From: Bdellovibrionota bacterium FG-2
GTDB lineage: Bacteria > Bdellovibrionota > UBA1018
Reading direction: 5' to 3'
Assembly: GCA_051382305.1 (NCBI GenBank)
Contig: JBBCAV010000102.1
Location: forward strand, 1 to 18,835
DNA: 18,835 bases
Part shown: piece by piece, positions 139 through 15,024 of the stretch
Layout: the number at the start of each line of letters is the position of its first letter
Numbering within the stretch: the first letter of the stretch is position 1
The notes under the pieces: generated by a model
Databases searched by the model: none
What the model saw: the letters and a program-made list of their open reading frames with translations, nothing else
What the model was told of the DNA's origin: nothing
Program-made: the position numbers and the translations under genes

Positions 139-339
139 ATGGCAAAAAGCAAATCGGTCGCTACTCGAATGGATACCCGAACTTTAATTGAGCTAAAGAA
201 GATATTTCCGAGCGAAAGTCCATCGCAGATCCTCCGAATTCTCGCGGAAGAGCGCATCGCTATTGAGCGCAATACGCAAAGCCTTTATGCGGCCAGAAAA
301 GCTTTGGGTGGAAAGAAATCAAGTAGAGACTTTCTGTGA
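139..339 (+). CDS. Putative antitoxin (small DNA-binding protein, VapB position)
   Basis: 66 aa, GGAGG SD upstream, N-terminal strand-helix-helix pattern (SVATRMDTRTLIELKK...SPSQILRIL), GTGA overlap with the downstream PIN gene. Confidence 0.65.
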   Translation: MAKSKSVATRMDTRTLIELKKIFPSESPSQILRILAEERIAIERNTQSLYAARKALGGKKSSRDFL

Positions 340-728
340 TCGTCGTCGCTGACACGAGCGTGATTCTCGATTTTTTGGATGGAGATATTTCGGATCCGTA
401 CGCCCTTGTTCGCCCCTATCGGCTGATTCTGATTTCTCCCGTGGTTCTTCATGAAGTATTGCGAACCTTTCCTGATGATTATCATTCACAGCTATTCGAA
501 GAACTGCGTCAAGAACTCCTGCCCGCTCCGAGGCTTGAGCATTGGATTGAAGCTGCCCAGGTCATGAGAACCCTGTATTCTCGACGGCATGAAAAGAACA
601 TGGCTAGAATGCAAAATAATATTTTGATCGCGTTAGCTGCCCGTGAGGTTGGCGCCCCCGTTTGGAGCAGGGACGCCGACTTTGAGATTATTTGTAACCA
701 CTTAGGAATTGGACTTCTTAAACAATAG
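336..728 (+). CDS. vapC: PIN-domain (VapC-family) toxin
   Basis: 130 aa; VVADTSVILD, SPVVLHEVL, ILIALAA and VWSRDADF PIN motifs; third acidic position appears to be N rather than D. Confidence 0.85.
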   Translation: MIVVADTSVILDFLDGDISDPYALVRPYRLILISPVVLHEVLRTFPDDYHSQLFEELRQELLPAPRLEHWIEAAQVMRTLYSRRHEKNMARMQNNILIALAAREVGAPVWSRDADFEIICNHLGIGLLKQ

Positions 729-7106: not shown

Positions 7107-8046
7107 GAGCTCTTGGATTCAGCGCGCGATGATTGGGTTAATTTTGGCCGCCGCTTGTTTTTTCCTTTTCCGTTATCGCAGGGAGTTTTTAAATATTCGA
7201 ATTCATGAACCCTGGCTTCTCATCCCTCTGAGTTTTCTCGTTGTTGGGTTTTTCTTTACCAATGGATTGCATAATCGGTTTTTTCTCAGGGCTTTTTCGC
7301 TGCGGCTTACGCCCACGGAGTGGTTTGGCCTCTCGGTGGTTAATACCTTGGGCAATTTGCTAACGCCTATGCGTGGGGGGGCGATTTCGAACGCGGTTTA
7401 TCTCAAGCAAAAATACGGATTTTCTTATGCTTCTTATGTGGGCGTGTTGTCCGCGACCTACGTCATAATGTTTTGGATTAATTCGCTGATGGGTTTGCTT
7501 GCACTTGTGGCGGTCGGCGGAGTGCTTGGAGGCGCCGCACACCCCCTGGGGAAACTCATCGCATTGGTTTTTGGCGGAAGTTTTCTGTTTTTTACGCTGA
7601 TTATTTTATTCTCGCCTCGCTTTCCAGCGCCTCAAAACCGATTTTTGGCAAAATGTGTGCATGCTCTCAATGATTGGCATCAGGTGCGGAGTAACCGCCC
7701 AGTTATTGTGGCAACCGCCTCGATTGGTTTCGTCAATGTTCTGCTCATGACTTTGATGGCCTATGTCCAGTTGCGCCTTGTGGGGAGTGCGGTCAGTCTC
7801 GAGAAGTGTATGGTGATTTCTGTGTTTTCATCTTTTTCGCTTTTTCTGAGCATTACGCCTGGAAGTTTAGGAATTCGTGAAGCCTTCGCCGCTGTGTCGG
7901 GCTTCGTCGTGGGGTTGTCTCCTGCGGTCATGGTGGCAGCAAGCGTGATTGAGCGGTTGATTAATTTTGGCTGGTCGCTAGGCCTTGGGTTAGTGTTTTC
8001 GCGGGCGCTGATGCTGCGGGCTTCGAAGACAAAGCGGTCTATTTGA
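7099..8046 (+). CDS. Polytopic membrane protein, LPG-synthase TM / flippase-like family
   Basis: Many hydrophobic segments; NLLTPMRGG and SITPGSLGIRE motifs, ERLINF; TTG start at 7099 with GGGAG upstream, overlapping the epimerase stop. Confidence 0.75.
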   Translation: MAKSSWIQRAMIGLILAAACFFLFRYRREFLNIRIHEPWLLIPLSFLVVGFFFTNGLHNRFFLRAFSLRLTPTEWFGLSVVNTLGNLLTPMRGGAISNAVYLKQKYGFSYASYVGVLSATYVIMFWINSLMGLLALVAVGGVLGGAAHPLGKLIALVFGGSFLFFTLIILFSPRFPAPQNRFLAKCVHALNDWHQVRSNRPVIVATASIGFVNVLLMTLMAYVQLRLVGSAVSLEKCMVISVFSSFSLFLSITPGSLGIREAFAAVSGFVVGLSPAVMVAASVIERLINFGWSLGLGLVFSRALMLRASKTKRSI

Positions 8047-9237: not shown

Positions 9238-9417
9238 GACCGTGTAAAGTACCCATTTTGTTGCATGTCTCGAGGCCGTTTTCAATAAAAATTTCGCCAA
9301 AAACCGTGCTGACGAGAGTTAAGGCGGTAAGCAGAACAATCTTGCAAGGTTCAAAAAACCGCGTTTCTTTACCCGCTCGTTTTCCCGAAGAGCCACCATT
9401 TTTTCATGGATCAAATG

Positions 9418-9526: not shown

Positions 9527-11716
9527 TTACACTACGCTATACCACGCCTCTGGAGGTTCCTTGCCCAGTATCCCCGCCAAGAAGTCGAGGCCCTGAAACT
9601 TCTCGGGTTCATACCCGGTTGCGAGGTAGACCTTTTTGAATCCGAGCTCATAAATCTTCCTTGCAACTTCTTCGCCTTTGATGCCCTCGCCTAAATTGGC
9701 GTCGACATAGACGGGAGAGCCTTTTGCAAGGCTGGTTGCGATTTTAAAGAACTGGTCGGGATGAGAAAATGCACGAAGCTTCTTGCCACATTGTTTGGCC
9801 GAGATTTCCCAGTTCATATGGACGAGGCTGTCGTCGTCGAGCAAAATGGCATCGACTAATTCCGCTGCCACCCCAAAGGAGATCGGCACAAAACCCGCCA
9901 AGCCTTTTGGGATGAGGCGCACCTTGAGGCGCTGGCAACCTTCCATGATCTGCTGTTCTTCAAACCGGCTGGTGACAAGAATGCTCTGAGGTCCCAGATT
10001 GAGTTCCTCGATAAGTTTCAGTCCTGTTTCCTTAAAGCCTAATAACTCAAAGTCGGCAAGATAGAGTGCTTGCTCAGCTGCTGCTGGGTTCTCAAAAATC
10101 CAAGCCCGCAACTGCTCTGGAGTTGATAGGTGATGAACATCAATTCCTTTATCCGAGATTCGCAGCGAATCAAACCGGCCTTGCCAGATTTGATGAATAC
10201 TTGAGTCATCATCAAGCACAACGATTTTAGAGTTTGGAATCAGTTTGAGCTCTGAGACGAACCAATCTGGCGAAGGGGCTTGAGGGAGGATGACTCTCAC
10301 CGTGGTACCTTGACCAACTTCTGATTCGATATCGAGTTGCCCGCCCCAGGATTCAACAGCAGTTTTCGCATGATAGAGGCCAAGGCCTGAGCCACCTGTT
10401 TTGCCGTGAGTTTCGCCTTTTTTGCCTAAGTTTTTCAAAATCTCAGGCGTAATGCCTGTGCCATCATCTTGAATCGTGATGGCAATCGTGGATTCGTGAT
10501 TGGTCATGCCGATCGTAATCGCCCCTTTTTCGCCAAGAGCCTCAACGCTGTTGTTGATGAGGTTGGAGAGAACGCGCTTGAATTCGGTGGGTTGAATTTT
10601 CGCAAAAAGTCCATAAGAAGTCACATCAACGCGGCCGTCGATATCGATGCCAATTTTCGAGCGGAACTGCATGCGCTTTTCCGTGACGAGGGGTTCAAGG
10701 AGACTTGAAAGCAAGAGTGTGGCGGTGGGCTCCGCAGTTGTGGAGTGCGGCTCTGTGTTTTCGGTCAGTGCGCCGGCCTTTAGTTTGGCGGTTGCTTCTC
10801 GGTTTTTCTGAAGCAAATTGTTGGCGATATCGTGAATTCGATTGACCGCACTTCGCAGCATGACTCTTGTGTCTTCGGGGAGTGCGGTGAGATCTTTTTC
10901 CATGGAATTTATGGCGGCAAGCGGGGAGCGGATGTCGTGGGCGACTTGGGTTGCTACCTGATTAATGGCATCTTGTTTCTTTTTTTCTGATAATTCATTT
11001 TGCATATTTTGCAGTTGATGCGCTTTGTTGACAAACGCTTCAAAGATCAATGCGATTTCATCTCTCGGACCTTCAAGGCTATTTGTACCGCCGTCGAAAC
11101 TCAAAATTCTTCTCTTTAGGAGGATGACTCTTCGTGAAAGTCTCATCGCAATGGTGCCTAGAACCAAAAGAAAGATAAAAAAGGAAATGAACAGAGAGGT
11201 GAATACCGCCCGTCTCTCAGAATCACCATCCAAGAAGAAGTGAGAAGCATTAAGTTCTGCGTTGACGGTGCCTGCCTTAATGTTTCCGTCCGAGATGACC
11301 AGGTGAAGTGTAATGCGTTTTGATTTGATTTGTTCCTCAAGAGAAATCTGACGATCCATGTTGGCAACTTTGTCTATGTCCGGAACTTTTCCAGCGGAAA
11401 AGACTGGGACGCTATTGGCATCCGATACAACACCCCAAACAAGCGATCGCCCCAGATACACTGACAGGATTCGTCCAATCTCCTTGGAGTTCTGCAATCG
11501 TAAAGGGTCTACAAGCGCATCCTGGAGTGCAGAAACAATTTCGTTTCTCTGGGCTTCGATTCTCGAGGCGGCTCGGTCATTAAGTTCCTTTGAATACCAA
11601 ACTCCGATAGCTATCGACATGACGACAGAAGCGGCCACGATGATTGCAAAGGATTGTCCTATGAAGCTATCAGTGATCTTTCTCAAGTTTGACCTTTCCA
11701 AGATAGAAATTCCCAT
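9527..11716 (-). CDS. Membrane-bound hybrid sensor histidine kinase (2 TM, periplasmic domain, HAMP-like, HisKA, HATPase, two receiver-like domains)
   Basis: H-box QVAHDIRSPL, N-box LSNLINNSVEA, IQDDGTGI, GSGLGL; REC-like VVLDDD...YLADFEL and ILLDDD...YVDANL; start uncertain (ATG 11716 or TTG 11686). Confidence 0.9.
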   Translation of the reverse strand: MGISILERSNLRKITDSFIGQSFAIIVAASVVMSIAIGVWYSKELNDRAASRIEAQRNEIVSALQDALVDPLRLQNSKEIGRILSVYLGRSLVWGVVSDANSVPVFSAGKVPDIDKVANMDRQISLEEQIKSKRITLHLVISDGNIKAGTVNAELNASHFFLDGDSERRAVFTSLFISFFIFLLVLGTIAMRLSRRVILLKRRILSFDGGTNSLEGPRDEIALIFEAFVNKAHQLQNMQNELSEKKKQDAINQVATQVAHDIRSPLAAINSMEKDLTALPEDTRVMLRSAVNRIHDIANNLLQKNREATAKLKAGALTENTEPHSTTAEPTATLLLSSLLEPLVTEKRMQFRSKIGIDIDGRVDVTSYGLFAKIQPTEFKRVLSNLINNSVEALGEKGAITIGMTNHESTIAITIQDDGTGITPEILKNLGKKGETHGKTGGSGLGLYHAKTAVESWGGQLDIESEVGQGTTVRVILPQAPSPDWFVSELKLIPNSKIVVLDDDSSIHQIWQGRFDSLRISDKGIDVHHLSTPEQLRAWIFENPAAAEQALYLADFELLGFKETGLKLIEELNLGPQSILVTSRFEEQQIMEGCQRLKVRLIPKGLAGFVPISFGVAAELVDAILLDDDSLVHMNWEISAKQCGKKLRAFSHPDQFFKIATSLAKGSPVYVDANLGEGIKGEEVARKIYELGFKKVYLATGYEPEKFQGLDFLAGILGKEPPEAWYSVV

Positions 11717-13139
11717 TCATGCCGTTGATCATTGTTAGACCGGACCACTGCTCAGGGATGAGAAATGTGTCGATTCTTCGCGCGAATGGAACCACCCATG
11801 CCTTTGAAATCAGGTGATTTACAAACTTTGCAATCCACTTGGTCCTCAGAAGGGGCTCTGAATCCCTATAATGATCGAGTAAGTTTGCTAGGTCTTTGTC
11901 CACAAATTTAATGAGTTTGTTTTTATCCCTCTGCGAATATACGAAATCTGCCAAAATTCCCTCAGCTAATGGAAAGGGGGATCCAACCCCGCACATAAAG
12001 AGTTCATAGGTGCCCCCAGTGATGTCCTCTTGAGCTTCAGTAAGGGTGCGGCTGACGATATCGATTTGTACTTTTCCTAAACGTGAATTTAACTTGGCAA
12101 CGATGCCTTCGATTGCCTTAATATCTCTTTCGTCGCGGTAAATATTGAGAAATCTAAGTCGGGTTCCTCTTTTTCCTTGTTTCGCCAGTTTCTCACATTT
12201 TGCCAGATCAAATAGTGAGGAGATGGACTTCGAAGGGAGGTAGTTCTCAATCCCGCTGGGGACTACTGATGAGTAGGGAACAGAGTTGCTTTCGAAATAG
12301 GGAATGCTTTTAAGTTCGCTTGGATCCATGCAGGCTGCGACTAGAGTTCGTATCGTTTGATCAACCATGTTGAGGACCATGATATTGACCCTGTGGCTGG
12401 GATAAATGACGCGATTAAAGCCGAGGGGTTTGTTGCTCCCTGTATTGACCTGTAAAAGAGGAAAGAATTGAATTTGCTTACTTAAAAGTTCATCTATTGA
12501 GTAGACCAGTTTATCAAGTCGAACGGCAACAATTTTTGAAATGTCACCTGCCGTAAAATCAACGTTGTTGGGGTTTCGTTGCAAGGTCATTTCGTTCGCA
12601 TTCGCTGAGGTTATGTAGAAAGCCCCAGATCCCAAGGGAAAACCCGCTCCGTCCAATTTCTTTGAAGTCACCGCAAATGAAAGATCAGAAAGGCGTTCAA
12701 TAAAAATTGCACTGGGCCTTTTCAATTCAACGGATAGAACTTGATTCTTGATTGTGATTTTACTGATGTTAGGCAGCAGTTGTGTGCCGTCCGGTGTACT
12801 TCGCTCAAAGGCTTTCTTTATGTCCTCTATTTCTATTGGGGTGCCGTCAGAGAAATGTAGGTTTTCGCGAAAGGTGAATTCATAGATTCGGCGCTCTGCA
12901 GACGTTTTCCAATTTGTGAAAAATGGACTTGATAGCATTGCGTTTTCGGTAATGAGGAAGAGGGGTTCGTAAACCTGTCTTAGAACTTGAGTTTGGTTTG
13001 TAGACCTGGAAAAAATATTAAGTGCGGCCGTTGGAAGTAAGTTGACTCCAAGGCGTAGGGCCGTATTGGCAGCGCCAGAATTAGCGCTCACGGCTAGCGA
13101 CAGATTAATGAAGACCGTTACCCAGCGAAAAATGTTCAC
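11670..13139 (-). CDS. Family-5 (OppA/DppA-like) extracytoplasmic solute-binding protein
   Basis: Signal-peptide-like N terminus; QVYEPLF, YEFTFRENLHFSDGTPIEIEDI, PLGSGAFYI, LQRNPN; GTG 13139 with GGGAGG SD in a GTGA overlap with the upstream stop. Confidence 0.8.
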   Translation of the reverse strand: MNIFRWVTVFINLSLAVSANSGAANTALRLGVNLLPTAALNIFSRSTNQTQVLRQVYEPLFLITENAMLSSPFFTNWKTSAERRIYEFTFRENLHFSDGTPIEIEDIKKAFERSTPDGTQLLPNISKITIKNQVLSVELKRPSAIFIERLSDLSFAVTSKKLDGAGFPLGSGAFYITSANANEMTLQRNPNNVDFTAGDISKIVAVRLDKLVYSIDELLSKQIQFFPLLQVNTGSNKPLGFNRVIYPSHRVNIMVLNMVDQTIRTLVAACMDPSELKSIPYFESNSVPYSSVVPSGIENYLPSKSISSLFDLAKCEKLAKQGKRGTRLRFLNIYRDERDIKAIEGIVAKLNSRLGKVQIDIVSRTLTEAQEDITGGTYELFMCGVGSPFPLAEGILADFVYSQRDKNKLIKFVDKDLANLLDHYRDSEPLLRTKWIAKFVNHLISKAWVVPFARRIDTFLIPEQWSGLTMINGMNGNFYLGKVKLEKDH

Positions 13140-13837
13140 GCGGTGACCTCCCACTTTTCATAGGCGATATCTAAATTGGTTCGTCTTAGAAAGAATCTAA
13201 GAGCTTTGTGGTTGTTGGCAAAAACCTGGAGGTAAAGCGGCGATCCTAGGGTGACTTTTTCTGAAATTTTCTTCATGAGTATTTCCTTGACCGGGCCGTC
13301 ACGGAAGTTCTCGTCGACAATCAATCTCATAAGGAGGTTTATGGTTTTGTTGCCAAACGTTGAGTCGGGGACTACTGCGCCACACGCATGGCCAATCAAC
13401 TTTTCTTGGTGATAGATTTGAACCGTATAGCCATGGTCCTTGATTACTTTGGAGTTCTGTCCAAACAGGGCCTGCATTTCTTTGGGAAATATCACGGAGT
13501 CTCGGTTGTTTCTGGTGGCGAGTTCTAGAACACTTTTGAAATCGTCAATGGGATAGGTTTCCTCAATTCTGTAGTCAGTCGGCAGAGGCTGTGCCTGTCG
13601 CTCAAAAAAGTTTATGGAGTTGGAATGAAGAAGGTAGGAGTAACGTTTTCCAATCGCGAACTCTTCACCCTTTTTTTGAAGGTAGTATATCTTCTTAGCT
13701 TTGCCCTGGTAAGACTTGATAAGGTCGCTTAGGCGCGCTGAGGAGCGAGGTAGGAACTGAATGATGTTTACGGTTTCTCCGTTTTCTGTTTGAAAAATTT
13801 TTTCGGGAGGGCAAATGGGTAATTGTTGGTTAGTCAT
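13136..13837 (-). CDS. Protein with C-terminal GNAT-like acyltransferase fold
   Basis: KLIGHAC strand, motif-A-like RLIVDENFRD, motif-B-like LQVFANNHKALRFF; ATGA overlap with the radical SAM gene. Confidence 0.55.
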   Translation of the reverse strand: MTNQQLPICPPEKIFQTENGETVNIIQFLPRSSARLSDLIKSYQGKAKKIYYLQKKGEEFAIGKRYSYLLHSNSINFFERQAQPLPTDYRIEETYPIDDFKSVLELATRNNRDSVIFPKEMQALFGQNSKVIKDHGYTVQIYHQEKLIGHACGAVVPDSTFGNKTINLLMRLIVDENFRDGPVKEILMKKISEKVTLGSPLYLQVFANNHKALRFFLRRTNLDIAYEKWEVTA

Positions 13838-14745
13838 AATGAATGTTTCGTGTTTGATCGGATTTTGGATAGAATAGATTTGCAGGATGCACAGGGTGAG
13901 GTTACGTCGAAAGGCCCAGTGACGCCAAGATGACTGGCGATTTCTGATAGACTCTTGGAATTGCGGAGGTTGTGGTATGGGTCAGTTCGATTTTTTGATA
14001 GGAAGGCGGTAAAGTCATCATGTCTTTCGACTAGCCCGCAGCGAGCTGAATATGCCGAACAATTTGTGATTTTGCCATTTGTCCAAATGGTGGCTACGTT
14101 GGGTTCTCCGCAGCAGTAATCCGATGGGATATAGTTGTCTGTATATTGTCGCGAGTTCTGAACTTGTGTTGCTCGCCCAAAAAGGGCAATTGGCTGCTTA
14201 ATGATTTCGTTGTATTTAAACTCGTTGCTGTGAATTATCTTTAGAGTTTGGGCAAGTTCGCTCATGGTTTTGTAGGTGATCGAGTATGTAATTCGTATCG
14301 GGAGTTGACGGCAAATTGTGTCGAGGTTCTTGTAATTCGCGAGTGGAATGTGTTCAAGGTGGTAGTTATCAATCGAAACCCAAAGTTCCGATAGGCGGGG
14401 GAATGTACTTATCATGGCGGCTGTGCCTTCGTAGGTCTTGAATTCTCCTGCTCCAGTTGCAACCTTGATAGTTTTTTGTTCTTTGTAGGAAACGATTTTG
14501 GCTATTTCTTGCATTAGCGGCAGATAAAGAAATGGCTCGCCCCCATTAAAATGAACTTCTCGTATTTGTGGGAGCACAGCAACTTGGTGCGCTAGATTTA
14601 GTGCCGTTTGCTCATCTAATTTTGATTGGCTGTTGGGGGTTGCTCTAGCAAAGCAGTGCGAACATTTGCTGTTGCATCGGTTCCCCAGAATAAAGTTTAC
14701 GGCCGATACTTCTGACATTTTATGCTGCAGATTTTTAGTCGCCAT
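13834..14745 (-). CDS. Radical SAM enzyme with Cys-rich C-terminal Twitch/SPASM-like extension
   Basis: CxxxCxxC (CNSKCSHC), FNGGEPF, VSIDNYH; C-terminal CCGEP...IWTNGKITNC...C...CASC. Confidence 0.9.
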   Translation of the reverse strand: MATKNLQHKMSEVSAVNFILGNRCNSKCSHCFARATPNSQSKLDEQTALNLAHQVAVLPQIREVHFNGGEPFLYLPLMQEIAKIVSYKEQKTIKVATGAGEFKTYEGTAAMISTFPRLSELWVSIDNYHLEHIPLANYKNLDTICRQLPIRITYSITYKTMSELAQTLKIIHSNEFKYNEIIKQPIALFGRATQVQNSRQYTDNYIPSDYCCGEPNVATIWTNGKITNCSAYSARCGLVERHDDFTAFLSKNRTDPYHNLRNSKSLSEIASHLGVTGPFDVTSPCASCKSILSKIRSNTKHSL

Positions 14746-14953
14746 CCCATGAGCGGAGTTTCACTTGGCGCTGGATGGAACTCAGTTGATCAGGTGTGAG
14801 GTCACCCATCTTGATTGCATATTCCTCTTCGAATTGTTGAATTAGAGCGTTTCGCTCTTCTGGCAAAAGTGAGTTCCAATCTTGCTGGATTTGATCATTG
14901 AATTTGTCTGAGGGGGACAGGCTCAATAGAAAGGCAATTAGCATTGTATTCAT
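14735..14953 (-). CDS. 72-aa small protein; putative RiPP precursor peptide
   Basis: Strong AAAGGAG SD 6 nt before ATG; first gene of the operon, 11-bp overlap with the radical SAM start; ends in KLRSWDGD. Confidence 0.7.
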   Translation of the reverse strand: MNTMLIAFLLSLSPSDKFNDQIQQDWNSLLPEERNALIQQFEEEYAIKMGDLTPDQLSSIQRQVKLRSWDGD

Positions 14954-14996
14954 ATGGACTCCTTTGAAAATCGCAGTTCGTAGTACCGCGCGTCAA

Positions 14997-15024
14997 ACTA
15001 TAGTGCAACGTGTAATTTTGTCGA
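14997..15024 (-). promoter_or_regulatory. Candidate sigma70-type promoter for the peptide/radical SAM operon
   Basis: Minus strand TCGACA (15024-15019), 16-bp spacer, TATAGT (15002-14997); 43 bp upstream of the ATG. Confidence 0.35.

Follow-up and report, generated by a model that had tools for sequence, protein, structure and literature searches.

In the epeXEPAB (yydFGHIJ) operon of Bacillus subtilis, a small precursor gene lies directly before the gene for EpeE (YydG), a radical S-adenosylmethionine (radical SAM) enzyme of about 300 aa, and the EpeP protease and EpeAB transporter belong to the same system. Modified ribosomal peptides are likewise encoded together with the kinases that sense them in agr and in the nisin system (NisK/NisR), and signalling of this kind is well known in Gram-positives and rare in diderms. 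In anSME acting on sulfatases and QhpD acting on the small subunit of quinohemoprotein amine dehydrogenase, a cytoplasmic radical SAM enzyme with one or more auxiliary clusters modifies a polypeptide that is exported later. Here we describe a five-gene cassette on a contig from Bdellovibrionota bacterium FG-2 (JBBCAV010000102.1, our C102), the whole 18.8 kb of which was analysed and is referred to as the window; the genome bin from which it comes (G000) is 85% complete. The cassette, whose genes follow one another in the same direction on the minus strand (9527-14953), encodes in order a small protein, a radical SAM enzyme, a GNAT-like protein, a family-5 solute-binding protein (SBP) and a hybrid sensor histidine kinase.

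The receptor systems closest to this locus are CBP-ChiS of Vibrio cholerae, which pairs an SBP_bac_5 protein with a hybrid kinase, and LuxP-LuxQ, which responds to self-made AI-2 (PMC8050422). The same source lists CBP-ChiS, DppA-Tap and AibA-TlpB as cases in which SBP_bac_5 proteins act on signalling receptors. We give about an even chance to the reading that the window cassette is one transcription unit, carried on an island, for the production of a modified small protein and for its sensing, and the recurrence of peptide, enzyme, SBP and kinase genes in synteny lends comparative support to such a make-and-sense module. The cassette joins two known kinds of system, the maturation of peptides that are synthesized by ribosomes and modified after translation (RiPPs) and the SBP-dependent kinase, in a layout not described in the literature searched. 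A full-text search, in which subscription journals were thinly covered, found no description of a cassette that unites radical SAM, SBP and kinase genes, nor of epipeptide-type loci in Bdellovibrio-like bacteria; the first-pass annotation, an earlier reading of this DNA, had likewise not recognised the architecture from any characterised system.

Organization of the cassette

Genes were taken from open reading frame (ORF) calls, and the 15 larger ORFs of the window were scanned against Pfam (Table 1). No junction is without an overlap between neighbouring genes, and this suggests a single stoichiometric unit. The small ORF and the radical SAM gene share 11 bp as read from the sequence, the radical SAM and GNAT-like genes an ATGA, the GNAT-like and SBP genes 19 bp when the first GTG (13154) is used or a GTGA when the GTG at 13139 is used, and the SBP and kinase genes 47 bp if the kinase starts at the ATG at 11716, or 17 bp if it starts at a TTG. 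With an AGGAG located 8 nt 5' of the ATG of the small ORF, these junctions bear out the earlier description of five co-oriented, overlapping genes headed by a 72-aa ORF with a Shine-Dalgarno sequence. The part list given then was also right; Pfam supports the radical SAM, GNAT, SBP and kinase assignments, and the small ORF belongs to a real conserved family. No ABC permease or ATPase, immunity transporter, peptidase or processing protease was present among the 15 ORFs scanned.

A sigma-70-like match lies approximately 45 nt 5' of the small ORF, within a block of about 130 nt upstream that is shared with the nearest relative of the window genome (G263, a congeneric genome recorded as an Oligoflexia bacterium). 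Across the region, sigma-70-like sites were not in excess over shuffled sequence, and terminator-like sites numbered 12, compared to 7.2 +/- 2.4 in shuffles. Sigma-54 promoter matches (<=2 mismatches) numbered seven in the window against 8.5 expected, with none upstream of the small ORF. An Rfam search (E<=1) for riboswitches and other RNAs, run on the window and on three loci of its relatives (L021, L023 and L024), gave one chance-level snoRNA match elsewhere.

A radical SAM enzyme related to EpeE

The profile of the radical SAM family matches EpeE/YydG along its whole length (positions 8-288 of 294, E 9.3e-23). The AlphaFold2 model of the enzyme, with a predicted local distance difference test (pLDDT) score of 88.3, retrieved EpeE structures first in a fold search (E 5.9e-17, TMq 0.74) and SkfB next (1.3e-8, TMq 0.56), with anSME structures among the weaker matches. 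The best NCBIfam match was also YydG (TIGR04078; 63.8 bits, E 1.8e-17), far below the curated equivalog cut-off of 300 bits, so that the window enzyme falls outside the curated YydG family. Its family consists of 13 members, the window enzyme and 12 close relatives, in all of which the CX3CX2C motif (C24, C28, C31) is invariant. C212, C229, C285 and C288 are invariant in the same 13/13 sequences and align with cysteines of the EpeE chains 8ai1 and 8ai3; we infer that these four are auxiliary-cluster ligands. The C-terminal domain of EpeE carries a single auxiliary [4Fe-4S] cluster in an extended twitch/T-SPASM fold (PMC13012085), and the homology to EpeE/YydG in profile and fold supports both a one-auxiliary-cluster, peptide-modifying function for the window enzyme and its earlier designation as a Twitch-type protein.

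The two enzymes differ at one residue of known function in EpeE. With residue numbers fixed by the Protein Data Bank sequences of wild-type EpeE and of its C223A and D210A variants, the N-C-S-A of the window family aligns with P-C-C-S in the wild type and with P-C-A-S in the crystallised C223A variant. The position of Cys223 is thus occupied by Ser in 12/13 family members, among them Ser230 of the window enzyme, and by Gly in the remaining one. Cys223 is the hydrogen-atom donor that completes epimerisation in EpeE (PMC5682303, PMC13012085). A C223S variant is a poor epimerase: it can still generate the C-alpha radical but is slow to quench it and yields less product (PMC13012085), and a review reports that mutation of Cys223 led to peptide breakage (PMC8326336). 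By homology, the window enzyme is EpeE-like in its fold and probably also in its first reaction step. An operon for both synthesis and detection of a modified peptide, as a putative quorum or kin signal, had been proposed in the first-pass annotation; this proposal is supported in part. The linkage stands, recurring across divergent cassettes as detailed below, but with the donor cysteine missing neither epimerisation nor the expected -2 Da product can be assumed.

The N-terminal core of the enzyme also matches viperin- and MoaA-type enzymes (E ~1e-10 to 1e-7). Since those enzymes act on nucleotides, the radical SAM and GNAT-like proteins might produce or modify a small molecule other than a peptide as the ligand of the SBP, with the small ORF encoding an unrelated exported protein. 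However, the viperin and MoaA matches are limited to the first ~100 residues, whereas EpeE is the homologue over the full length in both sequence and fold, and the small ORF both overlaps the radical SAM gene and co-occurs with it at every readable locus of the family, so that we hold a small-molecule role to be very improbable. A separate candidate, an anti-phage defence system, was rejected: PADLOC returned only viperin-like matches to the first ~100 residues of the radical SAM enzyme and none to the other four proteins.

The small protein as presumed substrate

The small ORF and the radical SAM gene are adjacent in 4/4 readable loci of the window family, namely the window, G263 and the metagenome contigs L023 and L024, a count that leaves out 10 radical SAM relatives found only in Logan. 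This pairing agrees with the RiPP layout that the first-pass annotation had recognised. The annotation had named radical SAM homologues with no small ORF next to them as grounds for refutation; besides these four loci, a small or exported-looking protein is encoded upstream at 8/8 distant loci. For the small protein, neither Pfam nor NCBIfam gave a family that exceeded its cut-off, and an Atlas look-up gave no usable match; a search of 1.84 billion representatives found 15 matches with E<=0.001.

In an alignment of 17 small proteins, in which signal peptides were called by eye, L10, Y45 and R67 are invariant. The N-terminus is hydrophobic and carries the motif F-L-L-G-(L/I)-(S/A/T)-P, the middle is helical and acidic (W26, L29, E-Y45), and the C-terminus reads R62...R67-(S/A)-(W/Y/F, rarely I/L/E)-D70 followed by a variable tail of 2-23 residues. 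No cysteine is conserved across the 17 sequences, which excludes thioether chemistry. The N-terminus of the window protein resembles a signal peptide, and a classic one (K-K, hydrophobic core, small-x-small) occurs in 3/17 sequences; the segment may serve as a Sec signal, as an enzyme-recognition motif or as both. A complex prediction with alignment input for the mature SBP (residues 28-494) and the small protein (16-72) scored 0.00, with an uncertain partner fold and with controls not run, and has no bearing on whether the two bind.

GNAT-like protein and SBP

The Acetyltransf_1 match covers residues 115-218 of the GNAT-like protein, and the N-terminal ~110 aa lie outside it. Its nearest Atlas clusters were all GNAT, with scores of 0.94-0.95, and the best Foldseek folds for its model (pLDDT 66) were tandem-GNAT proteins with a TM-score below 0.5. 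The acyl-CoA pyrophosphate-binding loop of GNAT proteins follows R/Q-x-x-G-x-G/A; the corresponding stretch here reads F-R-D-G-P-V-K and is partly conserved in relatives. In another genome of the phylum (G223), a related gene is located directly behind one SBP_bac_5 gene and convergent with a second, near ftsA/ftsZ (Table 1). The window SBP gave only weak NikA/Opp-type NCBIfam matches, and its N-terminus, judged by eye, is hydrophobic and signal-like; signal or lipoprotein-type N-termini were also seen by eye in cassette SBPs. With no permease or ATPase among the scanned window ORFs, the SBP is classed as a signalling-type orphan.

The hybrid kinase

The kinase has two transmembrane segments around an outer domain of ~130 aa, an H-box at H260, a HATPase_c domain and two receiver-like domains. 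HisKA fell short of its cut-off, with 17.6 bits where 26.9 are needed, but the H-D-I-R-S-P-L box shows no variation. The NF041832 hybrid-kinase model of NCBIfam aligns up to residue 604. By-eye reading of the alignment shows the acidic pair, acceptor Asp, Thr/Ser and Lys to be kept in both receivers (first receiver: D503, D504, D555, T582 and K604; second receiver: D628, D629, D672, T700 and K719). Neither the outer domain nor the double-receiver part had a Pfam match when searched alone, and a weak Response_reg match was found in the kinase orthologue at L033.

The double-receiver C-terminus is present in 209 of the 401 genomes in our phylum sample, often in several copies, with at least seven in the genome of the window; the size of this family makes the receptor half a generic module. 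A second kinase in that genome (on contig C340; Table 1) shares 89% identity with the window kinase across residues 235-727, which comprise the DHp, the ATPase and both receivers, and has no similarity to it in the first 234 residues, the sensor part. This mosaic suggests either an exchange of sensor modules or gene conversion in the transmitter.

Conservation and mobility

Close relatives of the radical SAM enzyme number only 12, at 40-93% identity, in a search of 5.8 billion clusters, and those of the SBP number six. L023 carries all five genes in the order seen in the window, with protein identities of 50, 45, 40, 46 and 38% in gene order, and L024 keeps the small ORF and radical SAM gene up to the end of the contig. 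In G263 (locus L021 on contig C250), the first four genes are 93-96% identical to those of the window. There, SBP homology to the window stops at 7358-7439, ~80 nt before the contig end, leaving an ORF of 288 aa; an insertion, a rearrangement or a join made during assembly could account for this break.

Homology between the window and G263 begins ~130 nt 5' of the start codon of the small ORF, and the sequences further upstream are unrelated. A phage-type integrase gene is located ~450 nt upstream of the cassette in G263, and together with the upstream break it indicates that the cassette behaves as a movable island. The GC content is 0.435-0.45 over 11001-15000 (small ORF, radical SAM, GNAT-like and SBP genes), ~0.48-0.53 in the flanks and ~0.49 in the kinase region, in keeping with an island that was acquired and lies next to a kinase transmitter that has been homogenised. 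A search for island boundaries found no flanking direct repeats of >=14 nt and no tRNA.

The modified peptide could be mainly a weapon or membrane-active effector, with the SBP and kinase used for autoinduction or self-protection in the manner of the sensor kinase of lantibiotic systems such as NisK/NisR. Both the low GC content with the G263 integrase and the activity of the closest characterised relative agree with this, as the latter makes an antimicrobial, membrane-perturbing peptide that is sensed by a two-component system of the producer (PMC8326336, PMC5682303, PMC7026026). The scanned window ORFs, however, include no EpeP- or EpeAB-like protease or immunity transporter, the C-terminal half of the small protein is by eye neither hydrophobic nor cationic but acidic and polar, and the cysteine that donates hydrogen for the two activity-giving epimerisations of the epipeptide is absent. 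The presence of several cassettes per genome, each with a dedicated receptor, also looks more like signalling, and we regard a primary effector role as unlikely.

Recurrence of the linkage in Bdellovibrionota

Matches to the window radical SAM enzyme at E<=1e-5 were found in 33 of the 401 genomes, or in 31 when the window genome and G263 are excluded. From these 31 we took the eight best distant YydG-like loci, whose radical SAM enzymes are 16-22% identical to that of the window. YydG was the best match in 4/4 of the distant cassette enzymes tested on TIGR04078 (62.7-86.9 bits), and Cys-Cys at the position of EpeE Cys222-Cys223 is kept in 8/8. Upstream of the radical SAM gene, each of the eight loci has a gene for a small or ~300-aa exported-looking protein, and downstream each has a family-5-type SBP gene, identified by Pfam for L033 and L037 and through BLAST links for the others. 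A middle gene of 204-244 aa is present at six of them, with a weak GNAT match in three, and a kinase follows at all five loci whose contig continues. In two of these Cys-Cys-type cassettes (L032 and L034), the product encoded before the radical SAM gene is 312-317 aa long and looks exported; the radical SAM enzymes there may act on full-size secreted proteins.

The tabulation of upstream genes that had been suggested for the SBP and kinase was carried out from the kinase side, on the 20 best paralogue loci, 15 of which had at least 1.5 kb of upstream DNA. An SBP_bac_5 gene is upstream of 10/15 of these kinases, directly adjacent in nine and across a single gene in one. In 6/10 of the resulting SBP-kinase loci, a gene for a peptide-modifying enzyme (YcaO, B12-radical SAM or other radical SAM) lies within ~4 kb. 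These six comprise one locus with YcaO and a nitroreductase-family gene (G263:C233), three with B12-binding radical SAM genes (two of them in the genome of the window, one divergently oriented), one with a YydG-like fragment and one with a 367-aa radical SAM enzyme (C168 of the window genome). Sequence comparison thus indicates that the SBP with a double-receiver kinase is a generic module of the phylum, found time and again in linkage with enzymes of RiPP type and with exported small proteins.

The breadth of the kinase family raises another explanation, namely that the SBP and kinase sense an unrelated external cue such as prey peptides or oligosaccharides, and that the small protein, radical SAM enzyme and GNAT-like protein are an output or accessory, for example a periplasmic modulator. 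A kinase family found in 209/401 genomes with several copies each would suit such a generic role, and 4/10 sampled SBP-kinase pairs had no modifying-enzyme gene in the part of their upstream ORFs scanned against Pfam. Family-5 SBPs bind varied ligands, and the one known SBP_bac_5-kinase pair senses chitin oligosaccharides (PMC8050422). The pairing of a GNAT-like and an SBP gene in G223, where the window radical SAM query had no match, points the same way. On the other hand, the linkage persists at the low identities of the distant radical SAM enzymes and across YcaO, B12-radical SAM and other radical SAM enzymes, and the overlap of the window genes at every junction suggests one unit; an external cue likewise seems to us unlikely.

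Proposed mechanism

For the preferred make-and-sense reading, we propose the following series of steps. The EpeE/YydG-like enzyme would abstract a C-alpha hydrogen from the 72-aa protein, most likely in its C-terminal R-S-W-D region. Because the donor cysteine is replaced by Ser in the window clade, the radical may not resolve as a simple epimerisation, and possible outcomes are epimerisation at a slow rate with a different donor, cleavage of the backbone with loss of the variable tail, or a cross-link. The GNAT-fold protein would perhaps add or transfer an acyl or aminoacyl group onto the small protein, and the product would be exported by Sec through its hydrophobic N-terminus; the scanned window ORFs provide no exporter or protease gene in the cassette. 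In the periplasm, the orphan family-5 SBP would bind the product and dock onto the outer domain of the kinase, whose two receivers would feed a phosphorelay common to many paralogous kinases. The gene order and overlaps, the homologies, the Cys-to-Ser change and the recurring linkage are observed; the substrate relation, export, ligand binding and direction of signalling are all inferred.

Several observations weigh against this reading. The hydrogen-donor cysteine is absent throughout the window radical SAM family, and 14/17 small proteins have no positively charged n-region. The F-L-L-G-L-S-P segment is better conserved than is usual for signal peptides and may instead be an enzyme-recognition motif. 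No lysine is invariant in the 17 aligned small proteins as a target for the GNAT-like protein, the Pfam match of which is marginal and the model only moderately confident. A 40%-identical GNAT-like gene stands beside SBP_bac_5 genes in G223, a genome in which the window radical SAM query found no match at E<=1e-5 and at whose locus no kinase or small ORF was seen; the GNAT-SBP link therefore needs no peptide. The window-type and Cys-Cys-type small-protein families show no homology to each other (hhalign probability 0.2%), no SBP was seen upstream of 5/15 paralogous kinases, and the cassette itself contains no response-regulator or Hpt gene.

The known systems share parts of this scheme. Compared to epeXEPAB, the window has neither EpeP protease nor EpeAB transporter among its scanned ORFs and adds the GNAT-like protein, SBP and hybrid kinase. 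Its precursor is unrelated and longer, ending in the R-S-W-D region in place of Val/Ile epimerisation sites, and Cys223 of EpeE is Ser or Gly in all window-family members. The host is also different, as epeXEPAB is reported from Firmicutes (PMC8326336) whereas the cassette is found in a Bdellovibrionota-type diderm. As in CBP-ChiS and LuxP-LuxQ, a binding protein is encoded beside a membrane kinase in a unit with no transporter of its own, and the window SBP is of the same family as CBP, SBP_bac_5 (PMC8050422). The window differs from these receptors in the presumed operon-encoded, modified protein ligand, in the two tandem receivers and in an outer domain with no Pfam match. The kinases of agr and NisK/NisR bind their peptides directly in monoderm hosts that have dedicated exporters and proteases, with no SBP intermediary, and anSME and QhpD have no sequence-level family membership in common with the window enzyme and yield enzyme cofactors or cross-links rather than presumed ligands.

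What sets the locus apart is a RiPP-type maturase hard-wired to an SBP/kinase receptor. In a predatory phylum, this arrangement turns up in combination with several classes of enzyme and in several copies per genome. Should the small proteins prove to be the ligands, Bdellovibrionota would offer experimenters a family of self-made peptide signals together with the receptors for them, and epipeptide-type radical SAM enzymes would gain a physiological role outside Firmicutes. The window clade would then also be a natural test case for an EpeE-like enzyme that lacks the hydrogen-donor cysteine, and the matched sets of ligand, SBP and kinase could be used to study how SBPs switch kinases. A further, speculative extension, which we consider unlikely, is that Bdellovibrionota possess a large, multicopy form of signalling, not described in the literature searched, in which RiPP enzymes (YydG-like, B12-dependent or other radical SAM, and YcaO) decorate small Sec-exported proteins, each with its own SBP and double-receiver kinase. 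The window clade would there be a natural 'C223S' relative of EpeE that directs the C-alpha radical at R-S-W-D to non-epimerising chemistry, such as a scission that frees the tail, and the product would represent a new RiPP class and a periplasmic or intercellular signal of diderms.

Flanking genes and other features

The cassette is flanked by polysaccharide-synthesis genes and a gene with an HNH domain. The latter, just downstream of the cassette, encodes a C-terminal HNH nuclease motif, with a weak N-terminal match resembling His-tRNA synthetase and a weak PADLOC match to type IV restriction enzymes. Upstream, within the polysaccharide gene set, is a fusion of a glutamine amidotransferase domain and a WbuX-type N-acetyl-sugar amidotransferase, the latter scoring 136 bits where the cut-off is 203. 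A PIN-domain ORF is located near the start of the contig.

Table 1. Coordinates of the cassette genes, neighbouring features and related loci. Positions with no locus name refer to the window.
Feature	Position	Strand	Details
72-aa small protein	14735-14953	-	ORF call; presumed substrate and signal
Radical SAM enzyme, 303 aa	13834-14745	-	Radical_SAM 36.8 bits (Pfam)
GNAT-like protein, 233 aa	13136-13837	-	Acetyltransf_1 23.4 bits, cut-off 20.7 (Pfam)
Family-5 SBP, 494 aa	11670-13154	-	SBP_bac_5 78.9 bits, cut-off 32.4 (Pfam)
Hybrid sensor histidine kinase, 729 aa	9527-11716	-	HATPase_c 81.5 bits (Pfam)
Sigma-70-like promoter match	14997-15024	-	TCGACA-16-TATAGT; 10/12 positions; consensus match only
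Terminator-like hairpin and T-run	9294-9315	-	~210 nt past kinase stop; consensus match only
HNH ORF, 321 aa	8193-9158	-	Downstream of cassette
Amidotransferase fusion, 673 aa	15396-17417	-	Upstream of cassette
PIN-domain ORF	336-728	+	
Phage-type integrase	L021:3066-4262 (G263)		
GNAT-like gene with SBP_bac_5 genes	L029:8711-12210 (G223:C1)		
Exported-looking protein before radical SAM	L032:10156-11094		
Exported-looking protein before radical SAM	L034:9545-10498		
Second kinase of the window genome	L068:209-2332 (G000:C340)		
YcaO-type cassette	L069:673-7950 (G263:C233)		101-aa exported-looking ORF, YcaO, 302-aa ORF, SBP_bac_5, nitroreductase-family protein, hybrid kinase
Radical SAM cassette	L085:334-7301 (G000:C168)	-	Sigma-54-dependent response regulator, 76-aa ORF, 367-aa radical SAM enzyme, 118-aa exported-looking ORF, SBP_bac_5, double-receiver hybrid kinase
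B12-radical SAM locus	L084 (G000:C123)		SBP domain fused behind membrane part, 894-aa ORF
B12-radical SAM locus	L082 (G000:C129)		Radical SAM gene divergently oriented

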